Part shown: piece after piece, positions 6,947 through 59,765 of the stretch | How positions within the stretch are numbered: position 1 is the stretch's first letter | Layout: every line of letters begins with the position of its first letter | Assembly: GCA_044229175.1 (NCBI GenBank) | Contig: JBGATM010000001.1 | Location: forward strand, 24,282 to 88,281 | Direction: 5' to 3' | Origin: Vicinamibacteria bacterium | GTDB taxonomy: Bacteria; Acidobacteriota; Vicinamibacteria; Fen-336; JAGNNV01 | Length of the DNA: 64,000 nt | Position numbers and translations under genes: made by a program | Notes under the pieces: model-generated | The model's input: only the letters and a program-made list of their open reading frames with translations | Database searches by the model: none | What the model was told of the DNA's origin: nothing

Positions 6947-6986
6947 CAGGGGCGTTCCTCGACGAAGCGGGCGGAAAGCGCCAGCC

Positions 6987-22853: not shown

Positions 22854-23006
22854 GGGACTCCTCTTGGTGAAGGAATGGGCTGCCTGGAGACGGGGCGACC
22901 ACGGGTCGCAGCCGGCTCGGACTGGATTCTCAACATACGCCGCCCATGAGGGGTCGTCAACGCCGGCGTCCAGGTTCGGGGCGCCGCTCGGCGACACCAA
23001 ACGTGC

Positions 23007-37183: not shown

Positions 37184-37963
37184 ATGAGCGGGGGCTCGAT
37201 CCGTCGCGACGCGGTTCTCCTGATCGGCTCGATCGCCCTCTCCTACCCGATCGGGCTCGCCCTCGATCCCTGGTTTCTCCTTCCCGCGCTCAACGCTCTG
37301 CCCGCGTGGTGGATCATGACCCGCCGCCTGCGCGCCGGCGATCTTCGCGGCGCGGTGCTGCTGATGCTGGTGTTTCCCCTCGCCCTCGCTGTCTTCGGCA
37401 CGACCAGCCTCGCCCTGTGGCCCACCACCGACGGTTTCCCGCCCCGGGTGTTCAACGGCCCGGAGTACCGCGCGGAGATGTTCCACTGGATCCGCTTCGG
37501 CGGCGGGACGGAAGGGAACTGGCGCCTCTTCCTGCCCCTGCACGTCACCCACCTGGTGGTGTTCGTGCTCGTGAGCCTGCTTTCCGGGAGCCTGGTCTCG
37601 ATCACCGGCGGCGCCGTCCTCGTGAACTACATGAACGCGTACGTGGCCTCGATTCACCGCGCGGGAGCGCCCCTGTGGGCCACGGTTTTCTTCGGCTGGC
37701 AGCCGTATGCGATCTGCCGGGTGGCGGCCTTCTGCATCCTGGGCGTCGTTCTCGCCGGCCCCGTGCTCTCCCGCGTCTTCCGCTATCCGCCTCAGCCGTG
37801 CAAGCACCTGCGCCCCTGGGTGCTCACCGCCTCCTTCCTGATCCTGGCCGACTGGACGACCAAGGCTGCGATCGCGCCTACCTGGGGACGTATCCTGAAC
37901 TCAGCCATTCCCGTGAATCTGCCTCCGGCCCAGCCCGAGAGCCCGCACGCCGGGCATCACTGA
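37184..37963 (+). CDS. Hypothetical polytopic membrane protein
   Basis: Several hydrophobic helices and no family I recognise. Its 3' end overlaps the convergent lpxB by about 7 bp. Confidence 0.45.
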   Translation: MSGGSIRRDAVLLIGSIALSYPIGLALDPWFLLPALNALPAWWIMTRRLRAGDLRGAVLLMLVFPLALAVFGTTSLALWPTTDGFPPRVFNGPEYRAEMFHWIRFGGGTEGNWRLFLPLHVTHLVVFVLVSLLSGSLVSITGGAVLVNYMNAYVASIHRAGAPLWATVFFGWQPYAICRVAAFCILGVVLAGPVLSRVFRYPPQPCKHLRPWVLTASFLILADWTTKAAIAPTWGRILNSAIPVNLPPAQPESPHAGHH

Positions 37964-39081
37964 GACAGGAAACCGGAGACCTCGTCGGCGGCGCGCCGCG
38001 TGGCCCCGCCTCTGCCCAGTTTTTCGCGCACTTCTTCCAGGTTCTTGAGCATCTCGGTTCGTGAGGCGCCCTCGTCGAGGACGCGCAGAGTCTCTTCCGT
38101 GACGCGCGAAGGGGTGAAATCGCCCTGGATCAGCTCCGGCACCACCACGCGGCCGGCGATCAGGTTCACCATCGCGTAGTTCGAGACGCTGAGCAGCGGC
38201 TTGCCCAGCGTGTAGGTCAAAGCGGAGAGCCGATACACGACCACCATGGGGGTGAGAGTGAGCGCGGTCTCGACCGTGGCCGTGCCGGAGGCCACCACCG
38301 CGACTCGCGCGGCCGACAGCACGTCGCGGGTCGCGCCCTCCTTGACGATGACGCCGATTCTCTTGGCCTCCTGAAGCGCGTCCGCGCGCAGATGAGGCGC
38401 GGCGGCCAGGATGAACTGCAGGTCGGGGCGCTTCTCGCGGAGGAGTCTTACCGCGCCCATCATCGGCGGAAGGTTGAATCCCACCTCCTTGTTCCGGCTG
38501 CCGGGGAGGAGGGCGATCACGGGACGATCGCCTTCGAGCCCGAGCTTTCTCGCGATGGCCGCGCGATCCGCGGGGGGCCTCATGTGGTCGATCAGGGGAT
38601 GGCCCACGAACGTCACCGGCACCCCCGCATCGCGATAGATCTGTTCCTCGAACGGGAAGATCACGAGCATTTTCGCGACGTCGCGCTTGACGTCCTTGAT
38701 CCGGCCCCGCCGCCACGCCCAAAGCTGGGGCGACACGTAGTACACCACCGGGATCCCGAGCTTCTTCAGTTCACGGGCCAGCCGCAGGTTGAAGTCTGGA
38801 TAGTCGATCAGGACCGCGACATCCGGCCGGAACCGGGCCGCTTCGGCCACCACCGAATCAAAGAGAGTCTTGATTCGCCTCAGGTGGGAGAGAACTTCGA
38901 ACAGACCCACGACCGCGAGATCCTTGAGATGGGCGAGCAGTCGTACGTGCTCCGCGGCCAGTCGGTCTCCGCCCAGGCCTACCGCTTCGAGATCGGGATG
39001 CTGTTTCCGAAGTTCGGCCACGAGTTCGGCGGCGTAGAACTCGCCCGAAGGTTCGCCGCAGGAGATCAGAAGCCGCGGCAT
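37957..39081 (-). CDS. lpxB: Lipid-A-disaccharide synthase
   Basis: MPRLLISCGEPSGEFYAAEL N-terminus and overall GT19 conservation; length 374 aa. Confidence 0.9.
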   Translation of the reverse strand: MPRLLISCGEPSGEFYAAELVAELRKQHPDLEAVGLGGDRLAAEHVRLLAHLKDLAVVGLFEVLSHLRRIKTLFDSVVAEAARFRPDVAVLIDYPDFNLRLARELKKLGIPVVYYVSPQLWAWRRGRIKDVKRDVAKMLVIFPFEEQIYRDAGVPVTFVGHPLIDHMRPPADRAAIARKLGLEGDRPVIALLPGSRNKEVGFNLPPMMGAVRLLREKRPDLQFILAAAPHLRADALQEAKRIGVIVKEGATRDVLSAARVAVVASGTATVETALTLTPMVVVYRLSALTYTLGKPLLSVSNYAMVNLIAGRVVVPELIQGDFTPSRVTEETLRVLDEGASRTEMLKNLEEVREKLGRGGATRRAADEVSGFLSQ

Positions 39082-41052: not shown

Positions 41053-43016
41053 TTCACACCCCATTTCGCGAACCATGCGAGTTCTCTCTCGATCTTGTCG
41101 ACCTGGTGGTTGGGCTCGCGGAAGCCGTGCGGCTCGCGCGGATAGGTCACGAACTCGGTCGGCACGCCCAGCTTCTTCAGGCCCAGATACAGTTCCTGCC
41201 CCTGGCTCGTGGGCACGCGGTCGTCGGCCTGGCCGTGGAGGATGAGGGTCGGCGTCTTCACCTTCGTGATCCCGGCCATGGCCGAGGCTGCCCAGTAGGT
41301 GTCCGCCTTCGCATAGGGCGGCCCGCCGAAATAGTCGTCGAGGGTCGAGGGGATGTCGTTCGTCCCGTACATGCTGAAGAGGTTGGTGAGGGCGGCGCCG
41401 CAGCTCGCGGCCTTGAAGCGGGTGGTCTGGGTGATCGACCACGCGCACATGTAGCCGCCGTAGCTCCATCCGTGCAGGGCCATGCGGTCCGGATCGGCGA
41501 CGCCCTTCGCGACGAGAGAGTCGACACCGCTCATGATGTCCTGGAAGTCGCCCCTGCCCCAGTCGTTCACGTTCAGCCTCTGGAAGGCATCGCCGTAGCC
41601 GGTGCTGCCGCGGAAGTTCGGCTGGAACACCGCATATCCCCGTCCGGTGAGAATGTGGTGATAGTTGTTCATGGCGGCGGGGAAGGTGAGGGTGTAGGCA
41701 CCCGAGGGCCCACCATGAACGTGCACGATGAGCGGCAGCTTCTTTCCCGCCGAGCCTTCCGGTCGGTGGAGCAGGCCCTCGATCTCGCGGCCATCCGGCG
41801 CCTTCCACCGCACCACCTCCGTGACGGAGAGAGCGAAGTCGGAGAGCTTCGGATTGAGCGTGGTGAGTCGCCGGGCCGCCGTGGCGGCGATGGGAAGCGA
41901 ACCCGGATCGACGCTTTGCACGTAGACGTCGCTCGGCGAGCGCGGATCCTGACGCAGGTAAACGAGCGAGGGAGCGCTCGTCGCCAGTCCGGGCGAGGAC
42001 ACGGTGAAAGCGCCGCTCATCAGCGCCCGGGGGGCGCCACCCCTGGTCGCTACGGAATAAAGCCGACCTTCGACCCCCACGGTGGCGGTGAAGAGGAGGG
42101 AAGCGCCATCGCCCGACCAGAGAATGGTTCCCGGGTTCAGGTCCACCGGGGTCAGCCGCGTGATGGCGCCCCCGGCCCGGGGAATGATGGCGATCGCGTC
42201 GGTCCCGGTGCGCGGCAGCTTTCCGTCGCGGGTGAGGAAGGCGATGGTCCGGCCGTCGGGAGAGTAGCGCGGCGACGAATCCGCGCCGGAGTTCTCGAAG
42301 AGAACTCTCGGCGCCCCACCCGTCGAGGGCACGATCACGATGTCCGAGGCGCTGCCGTCATCGGCCTTCGGGGTCGGCCTCCGGACCGCAGCGATCTCGG
42401 CGCCGTCTGGAGAAATGCGCGCATCGGAAAGAGTGAAAGCGCCTTCGGTCAATCGCTTCGTTTCTTTGGTCGCCACCTCGATCCGATGCAGATGGGTCAT
42501 GCGGAAGTCCTGATCCACCACGCGTTCATCGTCCTTGGCCTTCGTCCGCTTCTCCTCGTCCTCCGACGGCGCGTCGGCGGAAAGGGCCGCGATCCACGCG
42601 CCATCCGGGCTCCAGGCGAAGCCCGAGACCCCGCCCTTCAGGTCGGAGAGTTTCCAAGGCTCGCCGCCGCGCACGTCGGCGAGGAAGATCTGAGGTTTCT
42701 CTTCACGCTCGGAGATGAACGCGAGCTTCGTGCCGTCCGGGGAGAACTGGGGCGCGCGGTCGTTCTTCGGATGCCGGGTGAAGCGAAAGGGCTCGCCGCC
42801 CCCGGCGCTCACGAGCCAGATGTCGGTCTGGTAGACGTTCTCCTTCGCGTCCACTTCGCTGACCACGAACGCGACCGTGCGCCCATCCGGCGAGACCTGC
42901 GGGTCCTGGGCGGCGCGAATGGTCGGAACATCCTTCGGCTCCATCACGCGGTCGCCCGCGTGGGCGTAGGGCATGGCCGAAAGCAACAGAAGTGCGCTCG
43001 TCAGACATCTCTTCAT
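41049..43016 (-). CDS. S9-family serine peptidase, tandem paralog
   Basis: Signal peptide MKRCLTSALLLLSAMPYAHA, with GWSYGG nucleophile. Confidence 0.85.
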   Translation of the reverse strand: MKRCLTSALLLLSAMPYAHAGDRVMEPKDVPTIRAAQDPQVSPDGRTVAFVVSEVDAKENVYQTDIWLVSAGGGEPFRFTRHPKNDRAPQFSPDGTKLAFISEREEKPQIFLADVRGGEPWKLSDLKGGVSGFAWSPDGAWIAALSADAPSEDEEKRTKAKDDERVVDQDFRMTHLHRIEVATKETKRLTEGAFTLSDARISPDGAEIAAVRRPTPKADDGSASDIVIVPSTGGAPRVLFENSGADSSPRYSPDGRTIAFLTRDGKLPRTGTDAIAIIPRAGGAITRLTPVDLNPGTILWSGDGASLLFTATVGVEGRLYSVATRGGAPRALMSGAFTVSSPGLATSAPSLVYLRQDPRSPSDVYVQSVDPGSLPIAATAARRLTTLNPKLSDFALSVTEVVRWKAPDGREIEGLLHRPEGSAGKKLPLIVHVHGGPSGAYTLTFPAAMNNYHHILTGRGYAVFQPNFRGSTGYGDAFQRLNVNDWGRGDFQDIMSGVDSLVAKGVADPDRMALHGWSYGGYMCAWSITQTTRFKAASCGAALTNLFSMYGTNDIPSTLDDYFGGPPYAKADTYWAASAMAGITKVKTPTLILHGQADDRVPTSQGQELYLGLKKLGVPTEFVTYPREPHGFREPNHQVDKIERELAWFAKWGVK

Positions 43017-43810: not shown

Positions 43811-43824
43811 GGGGATAGCCCTCA
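43808..43824. terminator. Candidate bidirectional hairpin built from the two convergent stop codons
   Basis: tgaggg-gatag-ccctca is a perfect 6-bp stem. TGA of the plus gene forms the left arm; tca (TGA of the minus gene) forms the right arm. Confidence 0.3.
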
Positions 43825-44934
43825 GTTCTGAAGGATGGCTTTGGCGAGCCGTTCGGCCGCGAGGGCCGACGCGATTTCGTTCGGGTGCCGATCCACGGGA
43901 TGCACCCACAGATCGGGCGCCTTTCTCGAGAGCAGCGGTGGCAGCAGATCGGCGAACTCGATGCCTCGATCTTTCGCGAAACCCGCGGTGCGGTCGTGGA
44001 TTTCCTGGAATGGATAGCCGTCGTCCCAGGGCACGAGAAGGGGCCAGAGGGCGAGGATGAACCGTCCGCCCCGATGCTTGAGGGTCGCGTCCATCTCCTT
44101 GATGTACTGACGGGTGACCACGATGCCGGTGCTGTTGAGGTCGCTGCCGAGGGCCTTGTACCAGTCGATCATGATCCGGGTATCGAGCCGGTCCTGGCGG
44201 ATCTTTCGCAGGAGAGCCAGGATCCTCAGGTCGAAGAAGCCGGACTTCGAGGCTCCTTCGGTTCGCCGGACCATGACCAGAGGACTCGACTCCAGCGGAG
44301 GCTGAGCGAGTTCCGGCTTTCGAACCGTGTCGTTGAGGGTCATCCCGTAGATCAGGATGTCCGGCTTCAACGCGAGTATCTCCCGGAACTTGTAGTACAG
44401 GTCGGGGAAGTCGCCGCTTGGAACGCCCGCGTTCAGAACTTCATAGCGCTCCGGCCGGCCCCGGTTGAGCAGCGCCTGCAGCCGGTCCGACACTCGATCC
44501 TCGAGACGCAGGCCCCACCCCATGTTGAAGGAATCGCCCATGAGGACCACCCGGGTGATTCCCTCCCGCTTCTCCTTGAACTCCGGCCCGAGGTAGACGA
44601 GCGAATTGAAGGGCTGCTCGACCGCGAAGTGGCGCTCCGGCAACGCCTTGTCGAGATTCCGCATGCCGATCGATTCGTAGTGGGCGAGTGTGGCCGGATC
44701 GGCGAGATCGATCTTGAAGTACCCGCGGTAATTCGTTGGATAGCACAGGAGAACCAGCGACCCCGGGCGGATGTTCCCCTCGCCGTCGGCCTTCTTGTTG
44801 GCGATCCGCACCACGGGCATATTGGGGGCCGGGCCCAGCAGGCCGAGTCGCAGCGCGCCCTCCACCAGCGTGAGGGCGAGCGGTATCGCGATGAGAAAAG
44901 GAGCCACGAGCCCCGCCACCCGTCGAATTGCCAT
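43822..44934 (-). CDS. SGNH/GDSL-hydrolase-family protein, TM-anchored (AlgJ/AlgX/DltD-like)
   Basis: N-terminal TM (MAIRRVAGLVAPFLIAIPLALTL) and a VVLMGDSFNMGWG block (GDSx nucleophile). Confidence 0.7.
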   Translation of the reverse strand: MAIRRVAGLVAPFLIAIPLALTLVEGALRLGLLGPAPNMPVVRIANKKADGEGNIRPGSLVLLCYPTNYRGYFKIDLADPATLAHYESIGMRNLDKALPERHFAVEQPFNSLVYLGPEFKEKREGITRVVLMGDSFNMGWGLRLEDRVSDRLQALLNRGRPERYEVLNAGVPSGDFPDLYYKFREILALKPDILIYGMTLNDTVRKPELAQPPLESSPLVMVRRTEGASKSGFFDLRILALLRKIRQDRLDTRIMIDWYKALGSDLNSTGIVVTRQYIKEMDATLKHRGGRFILALWPLLVPWDDGYPFQEIHDRTAGFAKDRGIEFADLLPPLLSRKAPDLWVHPVDRHPNEIASALAAERLAKAILQN

Positions 44935-44990
44935 CTCGCTGCAACATATAACAGCTATCGTTCGCCCGTCCTTTTCGCCGCCTCCCGCTC

Positions 44991-46028
44991 ATGTCCTCCC
45001 GCCTTCGACAAGCCGCGTCCACCCTGGTTCCGGTTCTTTCCGCCCTGGTCGTGCTCGCCGTCCTCGCGGAGGCGGCAACCCGCTTCCTGAACCGGTCGGG
45101 GGAGATCTACGACGTTGAAATGTACCGGTACTCCCGCCTCCTCAAGGAGGACGCGCCGCCCGAGGCTCCCGCGATGCATCACTGGCACCGCAAGAACGCG
45201 GAGGCCACCCTCCAGGGTGTCTCGATCCGCACGAACGAACTGCGGATGCGCGACAAGCCTCGAACCGAAAAGCCGGTCCCGGGGATCCGGCGGATTCTGG
45301 TCATGGGCGATTCCATCACCCTCGGCTGGGGCGTGCCTCAGGAACGCAGCTACAGCGCGGTGCTCGAGGCCCGGTTGGCGGAGCGTGGCGAGGGCCGCTA
45401 CGAAGTCCTGAATGCCGGTGTGGGGAACTACACACTCTCCCGGATGATCGGGTACTACGATTTCGCGCTGCAGCGGCTGGAGCCGGAGACCGTCGTCCTG
45501 GCCTTCTATCTCACCAACGCGAGCCGGGAGCAGGAATCCTCCCTGGCCCGCCTGCTGGATACGCCGCTGCACTTTCCGGTTTTTCTCTGGTCGCGCGGGC
45601 TGCGCGTCTACTCGCGATTCTCGAAGGCCGCGAGCTTCCGCGATTACTACCTCGATCTCTATCAGGACGGGGGATCCGAGTACGAGGTGTTCAAGGGGCA
45701 GTTGCGCGAGTTCATCGGCCGGGTGCGCGCGGAGAAGCGGAACCTCCTCCTGGTGAACCTCCCGGATGTCCGCTACGCGTCCACGAAGCCGTATCCGTTT
45801 CAAGCCGTCTCCGACCGCGTGCTCGCGATCGGACGCGACGCGGGTGCTTCGACCCTCGATCTGACCGGGAGCGTTTCGGACCTTCCACCCGAGGTCGCGG
45901 TGAATTCCATCGAGGACCGGCATCCGGCCGCGCTTGCTCATCAGCGGTTCGCCGACGCTATTCTTGACGCCTTGCGCGCGGCCGGCTTCGTCTCGATGCG
46001 ACCCGAATCCCAGGGAGAAATGAAATGA
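44991..46028 (+). CDS. SGNH/GDSL-hydrolase-family protein, TM-anchored (second paralog)
   Basis: N-terminal TM and an ILVMGDSITLGWG block. It is divergent from the first SGNH gene. Confidence 0.7.
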   Translation: MSSRLRQAASTLVPVLSALVVLAVLAEAATRFLNRSGEIYDVEMYRYSRLLKEDAPPEAPAMHHWHRKNAEATLQGVSIRTNELRMRDKPRTEKPVPGIRRILVMGDSITLGWGVPQERSYSAVLEARLAERGEGRYEVLNAGVGNYTLSRMIGYYDFALQRLEPETVVLAFYLTNASREQESSLARLLDTPLHFPVFLWSRGLRVYSRFSKAASFRDYYLDLYQDGGSEYEVFKGQLREFIGRVRAEKRNLLLVNLPDVRYASTKPYPFQAVSDRVLAIGRDAGASTLDLTGSVSDLPPEVAVNSIEDRHPAALAHQRFADAILDALRAAGFVSMRPESQGEMK

Positions 46029-46147
46029 GTTCGTTCTCGAAGAAAGTGTTCCTCCTGACCTTGGGGATAGCCCTCTTGCTCGCGGGCGGTCTGTATTTCC
46101 TTTCCCGGTCGTCGGGCGACCAGCCCTTCAGCTACGCGATCCAATGA
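46025..46147 (+). CDS. Unannotated 40-aa single-TM micro-protein (DltX-like?)
   Basis: MSSFSKKVFLLTLGIALLLAGGLYFLSRSSGDQPFSYAIQ. Its ATG overlaps the upstream stop (ATGA) and its stop overlaps the downstream ATG (ATGA). It is absent from the ORF track because it is under 60 aa. Confidence 0.45.
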   Translation: MSSFSKKVFLLTLGIALLLAGGLYFLSRSSGDQPFSYAIQ

Positions 46148-47280
46148 AGCGGGCGCTCGGCGCCCTCCTGGCTCTGGTCTTTGGCCTGGCCCTGGCCGAG
46201 ATCGCGGTTCGCCTGACCGCGCCCGACCGTTTTGGCTCGCTGCAGCTCCTCCCCTACGACGTCGTGGAGCCCGTGACCGCGGGCATGCGCATCAACGAGG
46301 CCACGAGCTATCTGGTCTTCGAACCCGAACTCGGGTGGGAGGTCGGGCCGAACCGCCATTCCCTGAACGGGCTCTACAACTCGGACGGATGGGGCGCGCG
46401 CGTATCCGTTTCGGCGCGCGAGGGTGTGACGCCCTGGGCGACCGCGTTCGGCGACTCCTTCACCCACGGCGACGATGTGCGCGACGAGGAGACCTGGGCG
46501 GCCCGGCTCGGCGCGTTGGGCCTCCCCACCGTCAACCTCGGCGTGCCCGGTTATGGCGTCGACCAGGCCTGGCTTCGCTATCGGAAACTGAAAGATCGGG
46601 TTCGCTCGCGTGTCGTCCTGATCGGCGTGATGGCCGACAACATCGCGCGCCACCTCAACCGGTATCGGCCGTTCATCACGCCTTCCGAGCGGGTCTTCTT
46701 AGTCAAGCCCAGGTTCGAAATGAGTGAGGGCCGGCTTCGGCTCGTGCCTTCTCCGTTTCAGCGGTTCGACGATTACGCAAGCCCGCCCGAGATCCTCCGA
46801 TCGGCGCTTCGGGAGGTGGGGCTCAAGGACCGCTTCTTCGATCCGCGGTTCTACGAGTCGAGCCCGCTCGATCGATCGAAGCTGTTCCGGATCGCCCGGA
46901 CCCTTCGGCTCGACCCCGCGCGGCACGCGGACTGGAGGCCGCTCTACGCGGACGAGGCCGCGGTGGAGCTGACTCTCGCCATCGTTCGGAGCTTCGTCGA
47001 AGAGGTGCGAGGCGACGGCCGCGAGCCCGTGGTGGTCTTCATCCCCGACCGGAGCGTGGCGCAAGACGTCGCTGCGGGCCGAGTCCCGCCCACCACCGCT
47101 CTTCTCGATCGATTGAAGGCACTCGGCTGTCCGGTCGCGGATCTGACCGCCCCGGTCGCCCGATTTGCTTCGAAGGCGGAGGCCCCCGCCGCTTTTCTGC
47201 CCCACTATTCGCCCGCTCTTTCCGAGGCGGTGGCGAACTACATCGCGGACTGGAAGAAGACGGAGAAGAGTCTTCCGTAG
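46144..47280 (+). CDS. SGNH/GDSL-hydrolase-family protein, TM-anchored, DltD-sized (third paralog)
   Basis: N-terminal TM (MKRALGALLALVFGLALAEIAV) and an AFGDSFTHGDD block. Length is 378 aa. Its 3' end overlaps the convergent MBOAT gene by 43 bp. Confidence 0.65.
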   Translation: MKRALGALLALVFGLALAEIAVRLTAPDRFGSLQLLPYDVVEPVTAGMRINEATSYLVFEPELGWEVGPNRHSLNGLYNSDGWGARVSVSAREGVTPWATAFGDSFTHGDDVRDEETWAARLGALGLPTVNLGVPGYGVDQAWLRYRKLKDRVRSRVVLIGVMADNIARHLNRYRPFITPSERVFLVKPRFEMSEGRLRLVPSPFQRFDDYASPPEILRSALREVGLKDRFFDPRFYESSPLDRSKLFRIARTLRLDPARHADWRPLYADEAAVELTLAIVRSFVEEVRGDGREPVVVFIPDRSVAQDVAAGRVPPTTALLDRLKALGCPVADLTAPVARFASKAEAPAAFLPHYSPALSEAVANYIADWKKTEKSLP

Positions 47281-48383
47281 ACCTCGACGCTGTCGGTGAG
47301 CGTGAACCGGAACGGTACCCAGAGCAGAGTGACGCCCAGGAAGGTCACGAGAATGGCTCCCGCGCGGTAGGCCGGCTGAGACTGAAGCTTCATCCGCTTT
47401 CGAGCGGGCAGGAGGGTCAGGAGTTTTTGCCGGTGGAACTGGTGAGCGGCGAGAAAGACCCCGTGCCCGAGGCCCCACAAGGCGAAGGACAAGCGGTCTC
47501 CGTGCCACATGCCGCACAGGGTCATGGTCGCGAGCGAGGCGAGGCTTCCGGTCAGCAGCGGGCGCTCGGCCAGCCATTTCACGTTCAAGGCCCGGCCCGA
47601 AAGAGGCATGAAGACCTGGTCGCGCAAAAACTGGCTGAGTGAAATGTGCCAGCGCGTCCAGAACTCGCTGATGCTTGTCGAGAGATAGGGCCAGTTGAAG
47701 TTCTCTCCGATGGAGTAGCCGAAAAGCCGCGAGGCGCCAATGGCGAGATCGCTGTAGGCGGAGAAGTCGAGGTAGAGAAAAAGGCTGTAGGCGAGGAGGC
47801 CTGCCCAGAGTTCCGCCGAGGGCGCGGTCCGGTTGAAGTTCGTGTCCGAGAAGGCCCGGAGAGGCTCCACCAGGGCGAGCTTCTTGGCGAGGCCGGTGGC
47901 GATGCGAAGCAGGCTCGCGAACAACTCGGTGCGGGAGAGTGTTTCCGGGACCACGCCCTTCGCGAAGCGAGCGTACGGTTCGATGGGACCGGAGAGAAAG
48001 GTCGGCGGGAAGAGCGCGTATTCGAGCGCCTTCCCCACGGGGAGCGGATCCGCGGCCTTCGAGGCGGCGCGGCACAGGAGGATCAGGCGGAAGGAAACGT
48101 AGGACAGTCCGACCACCTGAAACGCCGGGAGGTGCGCGTACTTGTTGAGGAGCAGACCGAGGAGGGCGAGGCCGATGGCCACCGTGATCCGAAAGGGTCC
48201 CGGGACGAAGCGCAGGGTCAGCAACACGGCCAGAACCAGCGCGAAGTTGATCGCGACCGAGGCCGCCATCGTCCCGTACAAGGCGAGACCGAAGAGCAGG
48301 AGGGAGGCCGCTCGATACACGGGAGGGACGATCTTCCAGTAGAGGACCGCGAAGACCAGGACCGCGAGTGTTCCTGCGATCAC
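47238..48383 (-). CDS. MBOAT-family membrane O-acyltransferase (DltB/AlgI/PatA-like)
   Basis: Polytopic, with the conserved MBOAT His region (WTRWHISLSQFLRDQVFMPL) and WHGDR near the C-terminus. Length is 381 aa. Confidence 0.9.
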   Translation of the reverse strand: MIAGTLAVLVFAVLYWKIVPPVYRAASLLLFGLALYGTMAASVAINFALVLAVLLTLRFVPGPFRITVAIGLALLGLLLNKYAHLPAFQVVGLSYVSFRLILLCRAASKAADPLPVGKALEYALFPPTFLSGPIEPYARFAKGVVPETLSRTELFASLLRIATGLAKKLALVEPLRAFSDTNFNRTAPSAELWAGLLAYSLFLYLDFSAYSDLAIGASRLFGYSIGENFNWPYLSTSISEFWTRWHISLSQFLRDQVFMPLSGRALNVKWLAERPLLTGSLASLATMTLCGMWHGDRLSFALWGLGHGVFLAAHQFHRQKLLTLLPARKRMKLQSQPAYRAGAILVTFLGVTLLWVPFRFTLTDSVEVYGRLFSVFFQSAM

Positions 48384-50059
48384 CCGGCTTCTCCCCGGTG
48401 CGATGCGAGGTACGCGTTCCGATTGTCATTGCGGGCGATCTTGCCGCTCGAGGTCTTGATCAGGTGGCCTTCCTTCACCACGAGCACCTCGGAAAGGGCC
48501 AGATCCATCTGCTGCAAGACGGATTGAACGATCTCTCTCCGGATGGCTCGAGCGCGCACGGGATCGTCGGCCTCCGGACTCTCCACCATGGCGACCGCGC
48601 TCTCCGTCCCCTTCGCTTCGGAGCGGGCGCCAAAGGCGACCACGCGGCCGGCCTTGACTCCTCGCACCGATCCCGCGATCCGCTCGACCTCGTTGGGGAG
48701 GAACTTGCGGCCGCCGACCACGATCAGGTCGTTGTCCCGCCCGAGAACGTACAGTTCGCCGTCCTGGAGGAAACCCAGGTCGCGCGTGAAGTACCACCCA
48801 TCGGCTCGACGAGCCGCGGTCTCCTCGGGCAGACCGAGGTACTCGGCGAAGAGGAAAGGCCCAGAGATCGCGATCTCGCCCACCACACCCTCGCTCACCT
48901 CCCGCCGTCCCTCGTCCACGATTCGGATCCCCACATCACGGATCGCCCGGCCCGACGATGCGAGGACGCGGCGGGTGCTGGGGGCGGGCGCCACCGCGAG
49001 CGGACGGCCTCCGGGTTCGAGACGGGTTCCATCGACATCGACCCGTCGCGGACCGGCGCCGTCGGTCTGGGTGACCGCGAAGACGTTCTCGGCCATGGCG
49101 TACGAGGCCTGGATCGAACCGGCCCGAAAGCCGCGACTCGCGAAGGCTTCGACGAAGCGGTCCATGGACGAGGGCATCACCACCTCCGAGCAGTTCACAA
49201 TCGCGCGAATGCCCTCGAGGGAGGAGGGAGGGACGGCGCCGGCTGCCGCGCCGTGGCGATCCGCGAGAAGGGCGAAGGCGAAGTTCGGCCACCAGGAGAG
49301 GGAAGCCTGCGCCGCCCCCATGTCCTCCACGAATCCGAGGGGATTCAGGATGAAGGACTCGGGCGTCATCGAGCGGCACGAGACTCCGTGGCTGAGCGGC
49401 AGCAGAAACGAGGTCAGAAGCCCCATGTCGTGATAGAGCGGAAGCCAGGTCGCGATGAGGTCGCGGGCGGGGTCGAGGCGGATGGCATTCGCATAGGCGG
49501 TCAGGTGATCGAGGACCGCGTCGTGGGTCAGGGCGACACCCTTGGGCACTCCCGTGCTTCCCGAGGAATGCTGCAGGAAGGCGATCGCCGACGACGGCTC
49601 GGGAGCCCTTCCCACCTGCGACTCCGCCTGCAGATCGGTCACGTCGATCCATCGGACCGCCCGGGTCGTCATTCCGAGCAGGCGTTCCCGCACTTCCTTC
49701 GAAGCCACCACCACGTCGGTCTGGTAGCGGTCGAGGAGCGCTTCGAGGTTTCGCACGTACGTGGGCACGTGCGTCTTGAACGTGGGCAGCGAGAGGTTGG
49801 CGGGCACGAGGTCGGCGGCCATGGCGGCCACGAAACTCGTCCACAGCTCCGGCGAGGTCGGACACAGCACCGGGACGACTTGCCCATGCCCGAGGCCCGA
49901 TCGCTTCAGCCGAAGCGCCGTCCCGGCGATGCGGTGCGCGAGGGCGTTCGCCTCGATCGTCTCCGGAGAGGCGCCCGCGAAGGAATACGCCGCCCGGCAG
50001 TCTCTCGAGGTGAGGGACCGAAGGATGGCGGCGGGGAGCGACTCTTTCGGGTTGCTCAA
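48380..50059 (-). CDS. AMP-dependent synthetase/ligase, fatty-acyl-AMP-ligase-like adenylating enzyme (DltA role)
   Basis: Adenylation core motif FLQHSSGSTGVPKGV. Length is 559 aa. Its stop overlaps the MBOAT start. Confidence 0.85.
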   Translation of the reverse strand: MSNPKESLPAAILRSLTSRDCRAAYSFAGASPETIEANALAHRIAGTALRLKRSGLGHGQVVPVLCPTSPELWTSFVAAMAADLVPANLSLPTFKTHVPTYVRNLEALLDRYQTDVVVASKEVRERLLGMTTRAVRWIDVTDLQAESQVGRAPEPSSAIAFLQHSSGSTGVPKGVALTHDAVLDHLTAYANAIRLDPARDLIATWLPLYHDMGLLTSFLLPLSHGVSCRSMTPESFILNPLGFVEDMGAAQASLSWWPNFAFALLADRHGAAAGAVPPSSLEGIRAIVNCSEVVMPSSMDRFVEAFASRGFRAGSIQASYAMAENVFAVTQTDGAGPRRVDVDGTRLEPGGRPLAVAPAPSTRRVLASSGRAIRDVGIRIVDEGRREVSEGVVGEIAISGPFLFAEYLGLPEETAARRADGWYFTRDLGFLQDGELYVLGRDNDLIVVGGRKFLPNEVERIAGSVRGVKAGRVVAFGARSEAKGTESAVAMVESPEADDPVRARAIRREIVQSVLQQMDLALSEVLVVKEGHLIKTSSGKIARNDNRNAYLASHRGEAG

Positions 50060-50197
50060 AACGTGGCGTACATGAACGCCGTTTCGCCGCCCTGGTCGAG
50101 GGCGAGGGCCAGGAAGAGGATGACACCCACGAGGACGATCAGGAACGTGGTCTGAATCGGCCGGGGCAGGCCGTCGAGATACTGCGCCGGGGCGAAG

Positions 50198-50440
50198 TCA
50201 GCGCGCAGCGGCATCGGTGAGAGCCACGCACTTGTCTATGGTGTCGAGGTCTTCGAGCCCCACCCCGTCGGTCGCCAGATTGAACTCGGTGTGGAGGAAG
50301 GCCAGGAGCCGCACCGCGGAGAAGGAGTCCACGAGACCCGAACTGAAGAGCGCTTCGTCACCCCCGAGATCGAGGTCGGGCTCGTTCAGGAGATCCTTCG
50401 CCACGAACTGACGGATTCGCTGCCGTCGCTCCTCGCTCAT
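50198..50440 (-). CDS. Acyl/peptidyl carrier protein (DltC-like)
   Basis: 80 aa from ATG (90 aa if the GTG at 50470 is used). The phosphopantetheine-attachment site GLVDSFSAVRLLAFL resembles the DltC IIDSF...LLL motif. Confidence 0.75.
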   Translation of the reverse strand: MSEERRQRIRQFVAKDLLNEPDLDLGGDEALFSSGLVDSFSAVRLLAFLHTEFNLATDGVGLEDLDTIDKCVALTDAAAR

Positions 50441-50470
50441 GGGCAAAGTATAGGAGACGGCCGAAGGCAC

Positions 50471-51016
50471 TCAGGCCGGGGGATATTTCGCCGCGAGCTT
50501 CTCCATGGTCTTCATTCCGCGGAAGGTGGCCTTGACCTTGAGGGTTCGTTCGAGGACCGCGTTCGAGATCTTCGATTGGCTCTGCCGCGTCCGACAGATC
50601 CAGTAGAGCTCCGCGCCGTTTGCGTGGAAGTCGTCGATGTCGGTCCGGAGCCCGGTGAGCGCGGCCCGGGTCGCGGCGGGAAGCGGCTCCTTGAGGAGGC
50701 CGACATTGAGCGCGGCCGCGGCTTCCATCTCCGCGGCAGGAAACGGACGGTAGCGGGCGATGGACGACACGCCCTCGAGGGACCGGACGAACGTCGTGAC
50801 CTCGTACCCGAGAACGTCTTCCAGCATCCGCTCGATCTTCCTCTCGATCGCGGCGGGTTCCTTGAGGCGTGTCTCGAAGATCACGTTGCCACTCGCGATG
50901 AAGGTCTCGACCTTCGCGAAGCCCAGGTCCTCGAATCTGGCCCGCAGGACCTCCATCTTCACCACATGACTGCCGCCCACGTTGATGGCGCGCAGAAAGG
51001 CCACGTATCGAGCCAT
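50471..51016 (-). CDS. DUF1697-domain protein
   Basis: MARYVAFLRAINVGGSHVVKMEVLRARFEDLGF...SGNVIF is typical of DUF1697. It sits 3 bp downstream of the potCD stop. Confidence 0.7.
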   Translation of the reverse strand: MARYVAFLRAINVGGSHVVKMEVLRARFEDLGFAKVETFIASGNVIFETRLKEPAAIERKIERMLEDVLGYEVTTFVRSLEGVSSIARYRPFPAAEMEAAAALNVGLLKEPLPAATRAALTGLRTDIDDFHANGAELYWICRTRQSQSKISNAVLERTLKVKATFRGMKTMEKLAAKYPPA

Positions 51017-51019
51017 GAG

Positions 51020-52822
51020 CTAGTCCTTTCCCGATTTCACTTCGGTCCACAGCCGATCGTGCAGGGCCGCGGCCTCGCCCAGATCCTCGAACGGCCGGAG
51101 CTGCTTCATCTGCGCCTCCGACGGGAACATGGCGCGGTTGTCCTGGACGGCTTGCGGGAGCAGCGCCCGCCCCGCGCGCGACGGCGTCGAGTAGCCCGTG
51201 GTGAGACAGATCTCCGCCGCGATCTCCGGTTCCATCACGAAGTCGAGGAATTCAAGGGCGAGGTCGGCATGCGGGGCGTTTTTCGGTATGGCGAGATTGT
51301 CCACGAACACCATGGCCCCTTCCCGGGGGATGGTGAAGCGCACCCAGGGCGCCTCCTTCATGATCTTCGCGATCTGCCCGGACCACGACTGCGCGAGCAG
51401 CACCTCGCCCGAGAGAACCGCATCGTCGAAACTCGCCGAGTCGTAAGCCCGCACCAGCGGCTTCTGGTCGATGAGGACCTTCTGGATCCGTGCGAGCGAC
51501 CCGGGGTCCCGCGTGTTCGGGTTGAGACCGAGCAGCAGCGCGCCGAAACCGATGGCCTCCCGGGCGTCGTCGAGCATGAGGATCCGGCCCTTCCACCTCG
51601 GATCGAGGAGCGCGCTCCACGAGTCGACCGATGCGACCTGTCGGGAGTCGGACGCGATCCCGGTCACCCCCCACAGGTAGGGAATGGAGAAGCGATTCTC
51701 CCGGTCCCAGTTCTGGCCGAGGAAGTCGGGCGCGGTGCCTCCGAGGTGGGGCAATCGGTCGCGGTCGAGCGCTTGGAGAACCCCCGCGCGGATCAGGGGC
51801 GCGAGGGTGTAGGTCGGGGGACAGATCACGTCGTAGCCGGGGTTGCCCGCGAGCATCTTCGACAGCAGCGCCTCGGCAGAGTCGTATACGTCGAGGTTCA
51901 CCTTCGCTCCGGTTCGCTCCTCGAACCTGCGAATGGTCTCGGGGGCGATGTAGTTCGACCACAGGTAGAGATTGAGCTCGCGCTTTCCCTGATGCTGCGA
52001 TCTCGCGAGGACCACCGGGGTGGCGAGGATCGACAATCCCGCGGCCATGGCCAGCATGGAGAGGCGAGGCCGGGACTCGATGAGCGCGGTCGCGAAGAGC
52101 AGGAGGGTGGTGGCCGCGAGCAGGATGGTCGAGGCGGCGGCGATCTCCGGAGAGAGCGAGCTCTTGAGCAGCGAGTAGATGTAGACGGGCAGGGTGGTTC
52201 CGCCCGCCCCCGAGACGAAGGAGGTCACCACGTAGTCGTCGATGGAGAGCGAGAAGGTGAGCAGGGCCGCGGCCACGAGGCCGGGGGCGAGGAGCGGCAG
52301 GGTGACCCGACGAAACACCTGCCCGGCCGAGGCGCCCAGGTCGGCGGCGGCCTCCTCGACATCCACCGGCAAGGCGTGCGCGCGCGCGCGGATCACGAAG
52401 AACGCGAAGGAGAGCGAGAACACCACGTGCGCCGCCACCACCGTGCCGAGGCCGAGGGGAATGAAGAGCCGGGAGAAGAAGGCGAGAAGCGAGGCTCCGA
52501 ACACGATCTCCGGGGTGACCAGGGGCAGGAGGAAGAGCGAGGCGGCCCGCGCGCGGGTCCTCTCGGGGGCGCCTCTCGATCCGAGCGCGGCCGCGGTCGC
52601 GAGGATCACGACGATGAAAGTCGCGGAAGCGCCCACGATCAGGGAGTTCTCCATCGCTCTCATCAGGGGCCCGTTGTCGAGCAGCTTCCGGTACCAGATG
52701 AGGCTCGGTCCGTCGAACGATGCGGACAGGCGCGAGCGCGAGAACGAGAACACCGCGAGGGCGAGAACGGGAAGGTGAAGGAAGAGCAACGTCCCCACCA
52801 GCAGGGCCTGGAGCCGCTTCAT
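51020..52822 (-). CDS. Spermidine/putrescine ABC transporter permease (PotC-like) fused to a periplasmic polyamine-binding protein (PotD-like)
   Basis: Start at MKRLQALLVG (aa 228 of the ORF). A PotC 6-TM core with EAA-loop (AAADLGAS..FRRVTLPL) is followed by a hydrophobic segment (MLAMAAGLSILATPVVLA) and then a PotD-type solute-binding domain. The two parts share one frame with no stop. Length is 600 aa. Confidence 0.75.
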   Translation of the reverse strand: MKRLQALLVGTLLFLHLPVLALAVFSFSRSRLSASFDGPSLIWYRKLLDNGPLMRAMENSLIVGASATFIVVILATAAALGSRGAPERTRARAASLFLLPLVTPEIVFGASLLAFFSRLFIPLGLGTVVAAHVVFSLSFAFFVIRARAHALPVDVEEAAADLGASAGQVFRRVTLPLLAPGLVAAALLTFSLSIDDYVVTSFVSGAGGTTLPVYIYSLLKSSLSPEIAAASTILLAATTLLLFATALIESRPRLSMLAMAAGLSILATPVVLARSQHQGKRELNLYLWSNYIAPETIRRFEERTGAKVNLDVYDSAEALLSKMLAGNPGYDVICPPTYTLAPLIRAGVLQALDRDRLPHLGGTAPDFLGQNWDRENRFSIPYLWGVTGIASDSRQVASVDSWSALLDPRWKGRILMLDDAREAIGFGALLLGLNPNTRDPGSLARIQKVLIDQKPLVRAYDSASFDDAVLSGEVLLAQSWSGQIAKIMKEAPWVRFTIPREGAMVFVDNLAIPKNAPHADLALEFLDFVMEPEIAAEICLTTGYSTPSRAGRALLPQAVQDNRAMFPSEAQMKQLRPFEDLGEAAALHDRLWTEVKSGKD

Positions 52823-57254: not shown

Positions 57255-59765
57255 CTAGAACCGAAAGCGAACCCCGAAGGTGGGAAGAAAGGGGAGGGCC
57301 GCCGTGGGTTCTTCCACGATGGTCGGCTGGTTGCTCACCGTCGAAGGGCGCAGTTTCGCGTCGTACCGGCCGACGTTCTGCCGGTTGGTGACGTTGATGA
57401 ACTCGAGGTAGAAGAGCCAGCGCGACTTGATCCCGTGCGGCTTCCAGTTGAACCGCAGGTCGATTCTGGAAAACCACGGGTAGCGCCCGTTCAGAAGGTT
57501 CGATACCGAGCCGTAGTCCGCGGTGTAGACCGGAAGCCCGAGCGAGTCCCGCTCCGGGATCAGTTCGGTGGTGTTCCCGTCCCGGTCGACGTCGAGAGTG
57601 TCGGCGGTGGGCACCACGCGAACCCCGAGCGGCGCGGTGCGGGGAAACCCCGACGAGGCCCGGACCGTGAAGCTGAGCTGGACCTTCTCGGAAGCGTTCA
57701 TCTGGCCCACGATCGACAAGGCATGGCGTCGGTCGTACTCGAAGGGAAGGCTCCGGCCGTAAGCCTCTTTGGTGGCCTTGCCGAAACTGTACGAGGCCCA
57801 TCCGGAAAACCGCTGATCCCCTCCCCGCTGGGGCCGGGTGGCCACGAGTTCCAGGCCGTAGGACCTCCCGGAGGCGCCGTTTATGGGCGCGGTGGTGATG
57901 TACTTCTCCCTGGGAATGCTCGATTGGAGCGTGATCGGGAAGTCGTAGCGGGCGAGCCGGGCCTGAAGCTCGGCGTCGGTCTCGAGCGCGCCCACGATCA
58001 GATCCGAGAAATTCTTGTAGTACGCCTCGGCCTTGAAACTCAAGGAAGCGAAGTCCTTCTCGAAACCGAGCGTCGCCTGCCGCGATCGTTCGTTGCGGAG
58101 CCCCAGGGTGGAAAGATCCAGGAAGTAATCCGACTGCAGGAGTTTCTCGATCCCCGGGCTCTGCGAATGAGACCCGTAGGCGGCGCGCCATCTGAAGGTC
58201 TCCCCGCCCCGCACCAGAATGGACGCCCGCGGCTCGACCTCCACCGTTCCGGTGATGGACGACCGCGAGAGGCGCAGCCCGGTCTCTATGGACAGACGCC
58301 TCCCCATGGTCATCCGGTCCTGAATGTAGGCGCCCCATCGATTGGAGGGCAATCGCTCGTCGTAGAAGTCGGGGAGCGCCGCTCCGCCCCGGATCGAGGA
58401 GGGGTTGGCCTCGGAGAGGTTGCGTTCGCCCGTGATGTTGTAGGTGGCGCCGGTGCGGAGACGATGCGCCTCGAAGCCCGCCTCGATCAGGTTCGTGGGC
58501 GAGAGGGCGAAGCTCCAGTCGTTGCGCAGGGAGAGGTCGCGGGTGGCGATGGTCTGGTCGAAGGCGACGTTGATCTGCGTGGTGTTGACCCGTCCGTTCG
58601 ATCGCCTCGACCCGTCCTCGAACTGGGCGTCGACGGCGAGGGTCTGGGCGAAGTCGTAGTACGCGGCGGCGAGGGTCGACGAAAGCCGCGGGCCAAAGAA
58701 GCTCCGCGCCCGCAGACCGTAGACGTCATTCGTCGCGGCGTTGGTGAACGAGCCGCTGTCCGTGCCGTCCCCGGTGAAGGTCGCGTCTCCGGACTCGCGC
58801 GACCGCATTCCGAACAGGGTCAACCGCGTGTTCGTCGAGGCCTCGTAGTTCCCGCGAAACTGGACATCGTTGAAGCCGGGCAGGTTCTCGCCCACGATGC
58901 GATCGGCGACCAGATCGTAGTAGGTGCGCCGGGCGCTCACGATCCAGGAACCCTTGTCCCGGTTCTTCCACGGACCCTCGAGGAGCACGTTGCCGTCCGT
59001 GATCGACAGCGTGGTCGAACCCTGGAGGCCGCGGTCCTTCGCTCCGTCCCGGTTCTCGACCAGGAGAATCGAGGACAGACGATCGCCGTACCGAGCCGAG
59101 AAGGCTCCCGCGGACAAATCGAACTTCTCCACCGTCTCCGGGTTGAAAGCGCTGGTGAGCCCGAACAGACGGTACGGGTTGTGGATCTCGACACCGTCCA
59201 TGAGGGTGAGATTCTGGTCCGGGGTTCCGCCCCGCACCGCGAGCCGCGAGCCGAACTCATCGGTGGCGGCGATCCCGGGGAGGGTCTGGAGCGCCCTGAA
59301 GATGTTGTCGACCGCGCCCGCCACCTGGAGCACCTGCTGGGGCCGGACCGGAATGGACGCGGGGGAGGGGTCGTCCTTCTGAACGCTAAAGACCTCCACG
59401 AGCTCCTCCCGCTTCACGGGCCGATCGAGCAGGAGGATCACGGTGGAGAGCGACTCGACCTCGGAGACCGAGCGAACCACGGGCGGCTGACCTTTGGCCT
59501 TGAGGGTGAAGCGATGAGGGGGCGGTCCTCTTCGAACCGTGAACTGCCCGAGCGCATCGGTGATCACCAGGGAATCGTCGATGCGGACCTCGACGCCTTG
59601 GAGCGGCTCTCCCGAGAGGCTGTCCCGAACCTCGCCCCGGATGTCCTGGACTTCAGGTCCGGAGGAAGCGCGCGCCGGTTCGGCCGCGAGGAGCAGGCTT
59701 CCGGCAAAGATCGCGGCGAAGGTCGCCGGCCCCAGTATGTCTTTCATCCTCACGATTCTACTCAA
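57255..59765 (-). CDS. TonB-dependent receptor with N-terminal carboxypeptidase-regulatory-like domain
   Basis: Signal peptide, a CarbopepD_reg-like segment, a plug (LAVRGGTPDQNLTLMDGVEIHNPYRLFG) and a 22-strand barrel ending in an aromatic residue (FGVRFRF). Confidence 0.85.
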   Translation of the reverse strand: MSRIVRMKDILGPATFAAIFAGSLLLAAEPARASSGPEVQDIRGEVRDSLSGEPLQGVEVRIDDSLVITDALGQFTVRRGPPPHRFTLKAKGQPPVVRSVSEVESLSTVILLLDRPVKREELVEVFSVQKDDPSPASIPVRPQQVLQVAGAVDNIFRALQTLPGIAATDEFGSRLAVRGGTPDQNLTLMDGVEIHNPYRLFGLTSAFNPETVEKFDLSAGAFSARYGDRLSSILLVENRDGAKDRGLQGSTTLSITDGNVLLEGPWKNRDKGSWIVSARRTYYDLVADRIVGENLPGFNDVQFRGNYEASTNTRLTLFGMRSRESGDATFTGDGTDSGSFTNAATNDVYGLRARSFFGPRLSSTLAAAYYDFAQTLAVDAQFEDGSRRSNGRVNTTQINVAFDQTIATRDLSLRNDWSFALSPTNLIEAGFEAHRLRTGATYNITGERNLSEANPSSIRGGAALPDFYDERLPSNRWGAYIQDRMTMGRRLSIETGLRLSRSSITGTVEVEPRASILVRGGETFRWRAAYGSHSQSPGIEKLLQSDYFLDLSTLGLRNERSRQATLGFEKDFASLSFKAEAYYKNFSDLIVGALETDAELQARLARYDFPITLQSSIPREKYITTAPINGASGRSYGLELVATRPQRGGDQRFSGWASYSFGKATKEAYGRSLPFEYDRRHALSIVGQMNASEKVQLSFTVRASSGFPRTAPLGVRVVPTADTLDVDRDGNTTELIPERDSLGLPVYTADYGSVSNLLNGRYPWFSRIDLRFNWKPHGIKSRWLFYLEFINVTNRQNVGRYDAKLRPSTVSNQPTIVEEPTAALPFLPTFGVRFRF

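Follow-up and report, generated by a model that had tools for sequence, protein, structure and literature searches.

A Dlt-like gene cluster with a FAAL-type ligase, a carrier protein, an MBOAT and SGNH proteins in a Vicinamibacteria bacterium: a proposed route of envelope acylation

Eight genes within 43822..50470 of a 64,000-nucleotide (nt) stretch of DNA from a Vicinamibacteria bacterium (contig JBGATM010000001.1, positions 24,282 to 88,281; hereafter the window) appear to encode a carrier-dependent system for acylation across the cell envelope. The system would follow the plan of the Dlt pathway and of other machineries that couple a membrane-bound O-acyltransferase (MBOAT) to SGNH proteins, with a different loader at its entry. 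We give this reading a probability of about 0.62; its chemical steps we infer from the sequences. The putative loader is an adenylating enzyme of the fatty acyl-AMP ligase (FAAL) type, and it is accompanied by a carrier protein, a short MBOAT, two microproteins of 52 and 40 amino acids (aa) with a single transmembrane (TM) segment, and three SGNH proteins, SGNH-1, SGNH-2 and SGNH-3. An earlier, sequence-only reading of the window had described a Dlt-like toolkit in a Gram-negative context. The open reading frames (ORFs) which it named all exist at the positions given, and on public contigs that are nearly identical to the window the eight products have also been predicted by independent gene callers.

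The adenylating enzyme matches PF00501 (E 8e-42). Its best NCBIfam models are of the FAAL type, namely PRK07768 (324 bits) and PRK09192, a ‘fatty acyl-AMP ligase’ (304 bits). The generic model for amino-acid adenylation domains gives 110 bits, and DltA models are absent from the best 25 NCBIfam matches of the enzyme. In the PDB it is best matched by the E. coli FAAL (3PBK), FadD32 and FadD23; McyG and loading domains of nonribosomal peptide synthetases and polyketide synthases (NRPS/PKS) are also among the matches listed. The alignment with 3PBK contains only two 2-residue gaps over query residues 335-375, which we take to span the FAAL-specific insertion. The enzyme also carries the motif WLPLYHDMGL, found in place of the FDxS motif, in which the Asp serves to bind the alpha-amino group. 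On these matches the ligase appears to be a FAAL-type enzyme and not a DltA, as had been claimed when it was called FAAL-like rather than a D-Ala ligase.

The carrier scores 22.6 bits on PF00550, above the cutoff of 20.8, and stays below the cutoffs of both DltC equivalog models (NF003464, 21.6 bits against 68; TIGR01688, 16.3 bits against 52.35). Its best matches in the PDB and NCBIfam are stand-alone peptidyl carrier proteins (PCPs) and DltC, all of them weak, and no AcpP is found among the matches listed, in keeping with the earlier view that it is not an AcpP-type acyl carrier protein (ACP). A match to the model ‘ACP_for_OlsHI’ (30 bits against a cutoff of 130) was judged unrelated; OlsH is reported to be a GH3-like enzyme.

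The MBOAT (PF03062, E 9e-23) has DltB as its closest relative both by sequence and by fold. Its best NCBIfam model is the DltB model TIGR04091 (172 bits, E 2e-50; the equivalog cutoff, 375 bits, is not reached), and DltB provides the only sequence matches in the PDB (6BUG and 8JEM, E 1e-25). An AlphaFold2 (AF2) model derived from 17 homologues reached a mean confidence (pLDDT) of 91.1; a fold search with this model placed DltB first (TM-score 0.71-0.76), followed by the fatty-acylating HHAT, LPCAT3 and PORCN; eukaryotic MBOATs of this kind score 0.68-0.74. In an alignment of the short-MBOAT clade (A1), whose members are 32-80 % identical to the window protein, His246 and His294 are invariant and align with the histidines of the RWHMSL and FWHG motifs of DltB. 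Systems of the AlgI/AlgJ/AlgX type use a long MBOAT with a fused C-terminal FxYxxF motif, whereas the window protein has 381 aa and ends in FSVFFQSAM. Because its own C-terminus is devoid of the FxYxxF tail, the enzyme classes as a ‘split’ DltB-like MBOAT.

The FxYxxF motif is found instead at the end of the 52-aa ORF, whose product consists of a basic N-terminus, one hydrophobic helix and a short tail terminating in ETAFMYATF. Its topology is probably N-in/C-out, and the ORF is called as a gene in public contigs. FxYxxF is known as the ‘acyl shuttle’ hexapeptide, the Tyr of which bears D-Ala in the case of DltX and acetyl in that of the PatA C-terminus (PMC12148441). Counterparts of 50-59 aa occupy the same position in six further loci, and another is present in L004. 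All of them end in F[MLV]Y[ALVI][GAT]F, and F47, Y49 and F52 are the only residues that are invariant in an alignment of eight sequences (A2) sharing 26-58 % identity. When the 52-aa protein, a very short query, was searched against a representative library, only two true relatives were significant. The specificity of the motif was assessed on 80 unrelated MBOAT loci (1.06 Mb), which contain 11,232 small-ORF ends. F.Y..F was found at 81 of these, and 79 of the 81 passed the filter for a hydrophobic (TM) segment. Those that were inspected proved, with few exceptions, to be C-termini encoded by long MBOAT genes (typically PFIYF[RQN]F), the remainder being free microproteins such as the DltX of a Streptococcus locus (ending GSFIYNEF); the background thus amounts to some 2 in 11,232. 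Since the ends inspected are of these two kinds, an FxYxxF end is highly specific and chance is excluded. We propose that the 52-aa ORF, which had escaped the earlier reading, is the counterpart of DltX and a better candidate for this role than the 40-aa ORF; the latter had been noticed and does lie between SGNH-2 and SGNH-3.

Two of the SGNH proteins exceed the PF13472 cutoff, SGNH-1 with 34.2 bits and SGNH-2 with 46.5 bits, and the two are 29 % identical. Each of the three proteins has a hydrophobic anchor at its N-terminus and the serine of a GDS motif, from which a periplasmic location may be deduced. Weak matches of SGNH-1 and SGNH-3 to AlgX (13.7 and 14.1 bits) fall below the cutoff of 26.5. 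The third protein had been described as DltD-sized, but none of the three matches a DltD model (PF04914/TIGR04092) at E <= 0.1. The earlier count, two such proteins plus a third on the plus strand and yet a third on the left, needs correction as well: there are three genes in all, of which the plus strand carries SGNH-2 and SGNH-3 only.

The genes are tightly packed (Table 1). The carrier gene overlaps the start of the 52-aa ORF by 17 nt, the stop of the latter and the TTG start of the ligase gene share TTGA, and the FAAL and MBOAT genes overlap by 4 nt. On the opposite strand ATGA is common to the junctions of the 40-aa ORF with both SGNH-2 and SGNH-3. The MBOAT and SGNH-3 genes converge, with 43 nt of overlap between their 3' ends; this and the 4-nt overlap had been reported before and are borne out. 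The overlapping start and stop codons link carrier, 52-aa ORF, FAAL and MBOAT as an operon, and likewise SGNH-2, the 40-aa ORF and SGNH-3. A scan for promoters and terminators gave no signal above the shuffled background.

Table 1. Genes of the cluster (window coordinates) and large proteins found at related loci (coordinates of the respective locus)
Feature	Position	Strand	Basis or remark
Carrier protein, 80 aa, stand-alone, DltC/PCP-like	50198..50440	-	PF00550 match; Ser in FSSGLVDSFSAV
Single-TM microprotein, 52 aa, ends AFMYATF (FxYxxF)	50056..50214	-	Motif and architecture; proposed DltX-type shuttle
FAAL-type adenylating enzyme, 559 aa, proposed carrier loader	48380..50059	-	PF00501, PRK07768, PRK09192
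Short ‘split’ DltB-like MBOAT, 381 aa, without fused shuttle tail	47238..48383	-	PF03062, TIGR04091
SGNH-3, 378 aa, membrane-anchored, SGNH-like, GDS at 103, C-terminal PHYS motif	46144..47280	+	
Single-TM microprotein, 40 aa, ends PFSYAIQ, weakly DUF5989-like	46025..46147	+	
SGNH-2, 345 aa, membrane-anchored SGNH/GDSL, GDSITLGWG, C-terminal EDRHP	44991..46028	+	
SGNH-1, 370 aa, membrane-anchored SGNH/GDSL, GDSFNMGWG, C-terminal VDRHP	43822..44934	-	Divergent from SGNH-2
Large proteins without Pfam match	L091:2583-4379, L091:10326-12392; L093:3896-5686, L093:13069-15132; L006:3455-5515		

The expectation that gene set and order would be conserved elsewhere has been borne out. Six further distinct loci (L006, L008/L009, L090, L091/L092, L093 and one JGI contig), whose MBOATs are 41-46 % identical to that of the window in alignment A1, display the same order: the carrier comes first, then an ORF of 50-51 aa, the AMP-binding enzyme and the short MBOAT, and SGNH genes adjoin. 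Their carriers have 87-99 aa, and those of L006, L008, L090, L091 and L093 share the motif FSSGL(L/V)DSF with the window carrier and are encoded by the first gene of the operon; the AMP-binding enzymes measure 556-562 aa, except for a 387-aa call in L093. The SGNH genes also have orthologues of their own: SGNH-1 is represented by L090_366 (43 % identity, same divergent position), SGNH-2 by L090_336 and L006_346 (46 %), and SGNH-3 by L090_385 and L006_400 (47-48 %, same convergent position). In L008 the set is minimal: five genes, with only one SGNH, which is AlgX-like. At every close locus examined the FAAL clade accompanies the MBOAT clade, and the closest relatives of the FAAL (>450 bits) pair with size-matched contigs of the MBOAT clade in at least 11 cases.

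This association extends beyond the close relatives. A scan of metagenome contigs with the FAAL yielded mostly enzymes of 34-39 % identity, with two close relatives among the matches listed. Twenty metagenome loci offered at least 4.5 kb on each side of such a distant FAAL; an MBOAT was present in 18/20, a carrier detectable by tblastn in 16/20 and an [FWLM]xYxxF tail at a C-terminus in 18/20. The ligase can hence hardly be an ordinary FadD without ties to its neighbours, as a sceptic of the sequence-only reading might have supposed. Several architectures are found among these loci: a split MBOAT with an upstream microprotein ending in SP.WIYQGF, a split MBOAT with a downstream microprotein ending in F[LI]YGRF, and a fused MBOAT of 454-530 aa ending in AQ[FLM]MY..F or PFIYTLF. 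Since the distant FAALs too are linked to MBOATs and carriers, the window system is, as far as sequence comparison goes, one member of a large and diverse FAAL-carrier-MBOAT-SGNH class. Two other searches had a different outcome. Among the listed matches of a profile scan of genome contigs with A1 there were only ordinary MBOAT loci (30-41 % identity), which served as the motif control; of those listed, only L069 has a FAAL match, a weak one (53 bits, 22 % identity). A tblastn search of plasmids with the MBOAT and the FAAL returned only generic MBOATs and NRPS/PKS loading domains and no linked system.

In L105, L109, L133 and L175, fused long MBOATs ending in AQFMYR.F adjoin a FAAL and a carrier. 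Dependence on a carrier may thus extend beyond split DltB-like MBOATs, against the prevailing assumption that fused types use acyl-CoA. Several relatives reside in a glycan context, with glycosyltransferases and an ABC-2 transporter in L004, GT4, PMT_2 and LPG_synthase_TM genes in L091-L093, and Wzm and Wzt in L139. In L004 (6648-9140) it is a 59-aa microprotein ending in FVYVGF and a short MBOAT that lie inside the glycosyltransferase/ABC-transporter polysaccharide cluster, and neither carrier nor ligase was found within 8 kb of this pair. In one subfamily of the loci, proteins of about 590-700 aa without Pfam match (Table 1) recur beside the FAAL-MBOAT core together with PMT_2 (GT-C) and GT4 and could be components of acceptor synthesis or export. 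L012 (5380-10412) contains a tandem duplicate of a module made of a DltD-like SGNH (PF04914, 23.8 bits), a short MBOAT and a 37-aa microprotein ending in QFVYVMF; its first MBOAT copy appears interrupted, and neither carrier nor ligase was detected.

The proposed pathway would start in the cytoplasm, where the FAAL-type enzyme would adenylate a carboxylic acid, most likely fatty or otherwise hydrophobic, and thioesterify it onto the phosphopantetheine arm of the 80-aa carrier. That the acid goes to the carrier rather than to CoA is suggested by the adjacency of the two genes and their translational coupling. The acyl-carrier would then dock at the cytoplasmic face of the short DltB-like MBOAT which, by means of His246 and His294, would transfer the acyl group to Tyr49 in the FMYATF end of the 52-aa microprotein at the periplasmic face. 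From acyl-Tyr49 the group would pass to one or several of the anchored periplasmic SGNH proteins, at the serine of the GDS motif, and these would finally esterify an acceptor in the envelope, most likely a glycan such as an LPS/O-antigen-like polymer or an exopolysaccharide. A second Tyr relay, serving SGNH-2 and SGNH-3, would be provided by the 40-aa PFSY microprotein, whose gene lies between theirs and is translationally coupled to them. That the acyl group is a fatty acyl is probable in view of the loader family and of the nearest fatty-acylating MBOAT folds; we put it at about an even chance. A glycan acceptor, which is suggested by the characterised MBOAT-SGNH systems (PMC12148441) and by the contexts of the relatives, we place slightly on the doubtful side of even.

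Comparison with known systems is most instructive for DltXABCD, present in Firmicutes as well as in Dickeya and Pectobacterium. Five roles are common to both systems: an adenylating loader, a small carrier, a short tail-less MBOAT, a free FxYxxF microprotein and an anchored SGNH transferase. The window system differs in having a FAAL-type loader rather than DltA, in its gene order (C-X-A-B with convergent SGNH genes), and in its three SGNH paralogues and second Tyr microprotein. In an envelope of the diderm Vicinamibacteria type with lipid A genes, teichoic acid would be an unlikely acceptor. PatA/PatB, AlgI/J/F/X and WssH/I, which act on peptidoglycan, alginate and cellulose, respectively, likewise combine an MBOAT with one or more extracytoplasmic SGNH partners and an FxYxxF Tyr shuttle, and the alginate system resembles that of the window in employing more than one SGNH-like protein. 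In these systems, however, the MBOAT has about 470-520 aa, the shuttle motif is fused to it, acetyl-CoA is used, and carrier and microprotein are described as absent (PMC12148441). Here the shuttle is a separate gene, and carrier and FAAL are operonic. The absence of a carrier protein and a DltX-like microprotein is said to be common to the non-Dlt MBOAT/SGNH pathways, and current accounts treat the two components as special to the D-alanylation of teichoic acids (PMC12148441).

Other parallels are more partial. The eukaryotic MBOATs HHAT, PORCN, GOAT and LPCAT3 share the fold of the window enzyme and pass fatty acyl groups on to acceptors in a lumen or outside the cell, but they do so directly from acyl-CoA, without carrier, Tyr shuttle or SGNH partner. 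In Vibrio cholerae, the AlmEFG system for lipid A glycylation exemplifies a Gram-negative envelope modification that relies on a DltA-like ligase and a DltC-like carrier. AlmG belongs to the lysophospholipid-acyltransferase family and is not an MBOAT, the system is devoid of an SGNH partner and of a Tyr microprotein, and its cargo is glycine. Closer in composition are sister systems (L007:5713-9280; L094:3081-6438, L094/95) in which a carrier and a short MBOAT occur with an SGNH-like protein and a microprotein, the latter having 36-37 aa, an F[LI]YRGF end and a position downstream of the MBOAT. Their loader is an acyltransferase/decarboxylase of the LnmK family (TIGR04098, 110-125 bits against a cutoff of 100), and no adenylating enzyme or FAAL is present. 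The LnmK family delivers short acyl groups. For Sinorhizobium SMb20650/SMb20651, the co-transcribed ligase is reported to acylate its ACP, and the published account makes no mention of an MBOAT; no Sinorhizobium record was found among the 30 FAAL matches listed or the organisms counted in the plasmid search.

A number of observations weigh against our reading, or at least against parts of it. No component of the cluster reaches the curated cutoff of any Dlt family model, and the ‘complete toolkit’ of the earlier reading is an analogy of parts. The 52-aa microprotein has no Pfam match to DltX at E <= 0.1; outside the motif, no homology between the two sequences is detectable. SGNH-3 remains below the PF13472 cutoff (28.6 against 32.9 bits) and its AF2 model, computed from the single sequence, is unusable (pLDDT 39.9). 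As to the cargo, all FAAL models score below their curated cutoffs for the ligase, and FAAL-type enzymes also activate acids that are not fatty: McyG activates an aromatic acid. As to the acceptor, no glycan-synthesis genes adjoin the window cluster, which is flanked by peptidase-like ORFs, a DUF1697 gene and a Pot-type ABC transporter.

Some of these points feed two alternatives that leave the machine itself in place, both unlikely in our estimate but by no means negligible. The same enzymes might handle a short, hydroxy, aromatic or unusual acid, in which case the polarity or charge of the acceptor would change and no lipid would be added. In addition to the sub-threshold FAAL scores, the presence of McyG and of NRPS/PKS loading domains, which accept varied acids, among the PDB matches listed for the ligase speaks for such a cargo, and the LnmK-family loader of the sister system suggests that the chassis tolerates different cargoes. 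It is disfavoured by the best-scoring models and structures, which are fatty-acid enzymes (PRK07768, PRK09192, EcFAAL, FadD32 and FadD23), and by the fact that the window cluster has no tailoring enzyme for a special acid. Alternatively, the acceptor might be a membrane lipid or a secreted protein or lipoprotein instead of a polysaccharide. The missing glycan genes fit this possibility, as do the protein- and lysolipid-acylating enzymes that follow DltB in the fold search (HHAT, PORCN and LPCAT3), the location of LpxB 5 kb from the cluster, and LPG_synthase_TM near the system in L093. Yet the characterised bacterial MBOAT-SGNH pairs treated in PMC12148441 all modify glycopolymers, and several relatives are part of glycan clusters.

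More radical alternatives would do away with the system as such. It could be an ordinary acetyl-CoA-dependent O-acetylation pair of the AlgI/PatA style next to which FAAL and carrier merely happen to lie; many homologues are indeed annotated as ‘AlgI’ by JGI, and the weak AlgX matches of SGNH-1 and SGNH-3 point the same way. Adjacency by accident is hard to reconcile with overlapping codons between the genes and with a four-gene order that is kept at 41-46 % MBOAT identity. Moreover, almost every long MBOAT of the control set carries the fused FxYxxF tail that the window enzyme lacks, and DltB is the sole sequence relative of the latter in the PDB. We therefore regard this explanation as very improbable. 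Still less credible is a genuine D-alanylation system with a divergent DltA. Although DltB is the nearest relative of the MBOAT and the carrier is DltC-like around its Ser motif, the ligase scores for FAAL-type models far exceed that for amino-acid adenylation, DltA is missing from its best 25 matches, and both the WLPLYHDMGL motif and the alignment through the FAAL insertion region go against an amino-acid substrate. The preferred reading thus remains a carrier-dependent acylation system loaded by a FAAL-type enzyme, and the central claim of the sequence-only reading withstands the objections concerning carrier, ligase and MBOAT that it had itself raised.

The 40-aa ORF, which is called in public contigs, ends in DQPFSYAIQ. 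Counterparts exist in L090, at the same position and not called as a gene (ending DSPFSYAVR), and in L006 as a 42-aa gene (ending DGPFSYVLQ); D.PFSY is invariant across the three sequences (alignment A3). Against DUF5989 (PF19451) the ORF scores 20.1 bits, below the gathering cutoff of 27. With the substitution Q40F this score rises to 23.4 bits, and it drops to 14.9 bits once Ala replaces F, Y and Q. The profile was also probed with a synthetic DUF5989-like sequence, which scored 97.9 bits over the full profile and lost 14.6 bits when its terminal F, Y and F were changed to Ala. As these Ala changes lower the score, the DUF5989 profile, read through this probe, also ends in FxYxxF. The 40-aa ORF would accordingly be related to DUF5989 in layout and tail, with a score that falls short of family membership, and we propose its product as the second Tyr relay. 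A further case is L139 (85-2521 on the minus strand, and 6366-7880). About 2 kb from a FAAL/fused-MBOAT/SGNH/Wzm/Wzt cluster, this locus has a 616-aa ORF that looks like a carbamoyltransferase, judged solely by its N-terminal sequence, together with an ORF of 137 aa and a DUF5989-like microprotein of 50 aa ending in APFIYTLF. The MBOAT of this locus terminates in VTPFIYTLF and has the same tail. DUF5989 may be a family of free-standing Tyr shuttles, possibly for carbamoyl groups.

Judging from the loci collected here, relatives of the system are common in environmental bacteria. In an incomplete literature search we found no paper that links a bacterial FAAL with an MBOAT or mentions DUF5989, which is to be read as ‘not found’ and not as ‘never described’. 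We tentatively advance a wider proposal, which we hold to be less likely than not. FAAL-carrier-MBOAT-(Tyr microprotein)-SGNH clusters would be a widespread, uncharacterised bacterial route for the lipidation of extracytoplasmic envelope molecules, and the prokaryotic counterpart of HHAT/PORCN fatty acylation, operating through a carrier and one or two Tyr-shuttle microproteins. Free FxYxxF microproteins, including DUF5989, would form a general family of trans-membrane shuttles for acyl or carbamoyl groups, and the carrier-dependent ‘split’ design, no longer peculiar to Dlt, would serve as a modular chassis for three or more types of loader, among them DltA, FAAL and LnmK.

Our data suggest that diderm soil bacteria, too, possess the split design, with a FAAL loader, and that in a sister form the loader is of the LnmK type. 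Were the cargo a fatty acid, the system would amount to an undescribed route from cytoplasm to periplasm for the lipidation of glycans or other envelope molecules. If true, it might matter to the hydrophobicity of the cell surface, to the biofilm matrix and to the aggregation of soil, in uncultured phyla that are abundant. Candidate catalytic residues can be named (Tyr49, Tyr37, His246/His294 and the three GDS serines), and a functional hypothesis is offered for the uncharacterised Pfam family DUF5989.

The family search of the window supports the Gram-negative context that had been claimed: LpxB is encoded at 37957..39081 (-; E 4e-94) and a TonB-dependent receptor at 57255..59765 (-). On account of these two genes the host is diderm; the closest named relatives of LpxB (83-85 % identity) are metagenome-assembled genomes of Vicinamibacteria, and the host is a diderm acidobacterium of this class. 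More than 100 LpxB clusters were obtained at >=78 % identity and about ten MBOAT clusters at >=59 %, which loosely suggests a patchy, accessory distribution of the system.

Directly upstream of the carrier and on the same strand lies a DUF1697 gene (50471-51016, -), about 30 nt from the ATG start of the carrier and abutting another possible start, GTG at 50470. Near-identical contigs have this gene whereas the diverged loci lack it, for which reason it is probably not part of the system. It is followed by the Pot-type ABC transporter operon (51020-54668, -); in the near-identical contig L096 a called 600-aa transporter product comprises both a permease domain (BPD_transp_1) and a periplasmic domain for solute binding (SBP_bac_1/8). 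Two tandem ORFs that separate LpxB from the cluster (39088-43016, -) were assigned by eye as S9-type-peptidase-like with beta-propeller N-domains. The long N-terminal extension of the 906-aa ORF of this pair is probably spurious, its likely start being MKRLLLLAIFLP. Farther away, a multihaem cytochrome c fused to TPR repeats (23007-25307, -) adjoins the gene of a 1189-aa BNR/sortilin-Vps10-repeat protein (19431-23000, -).

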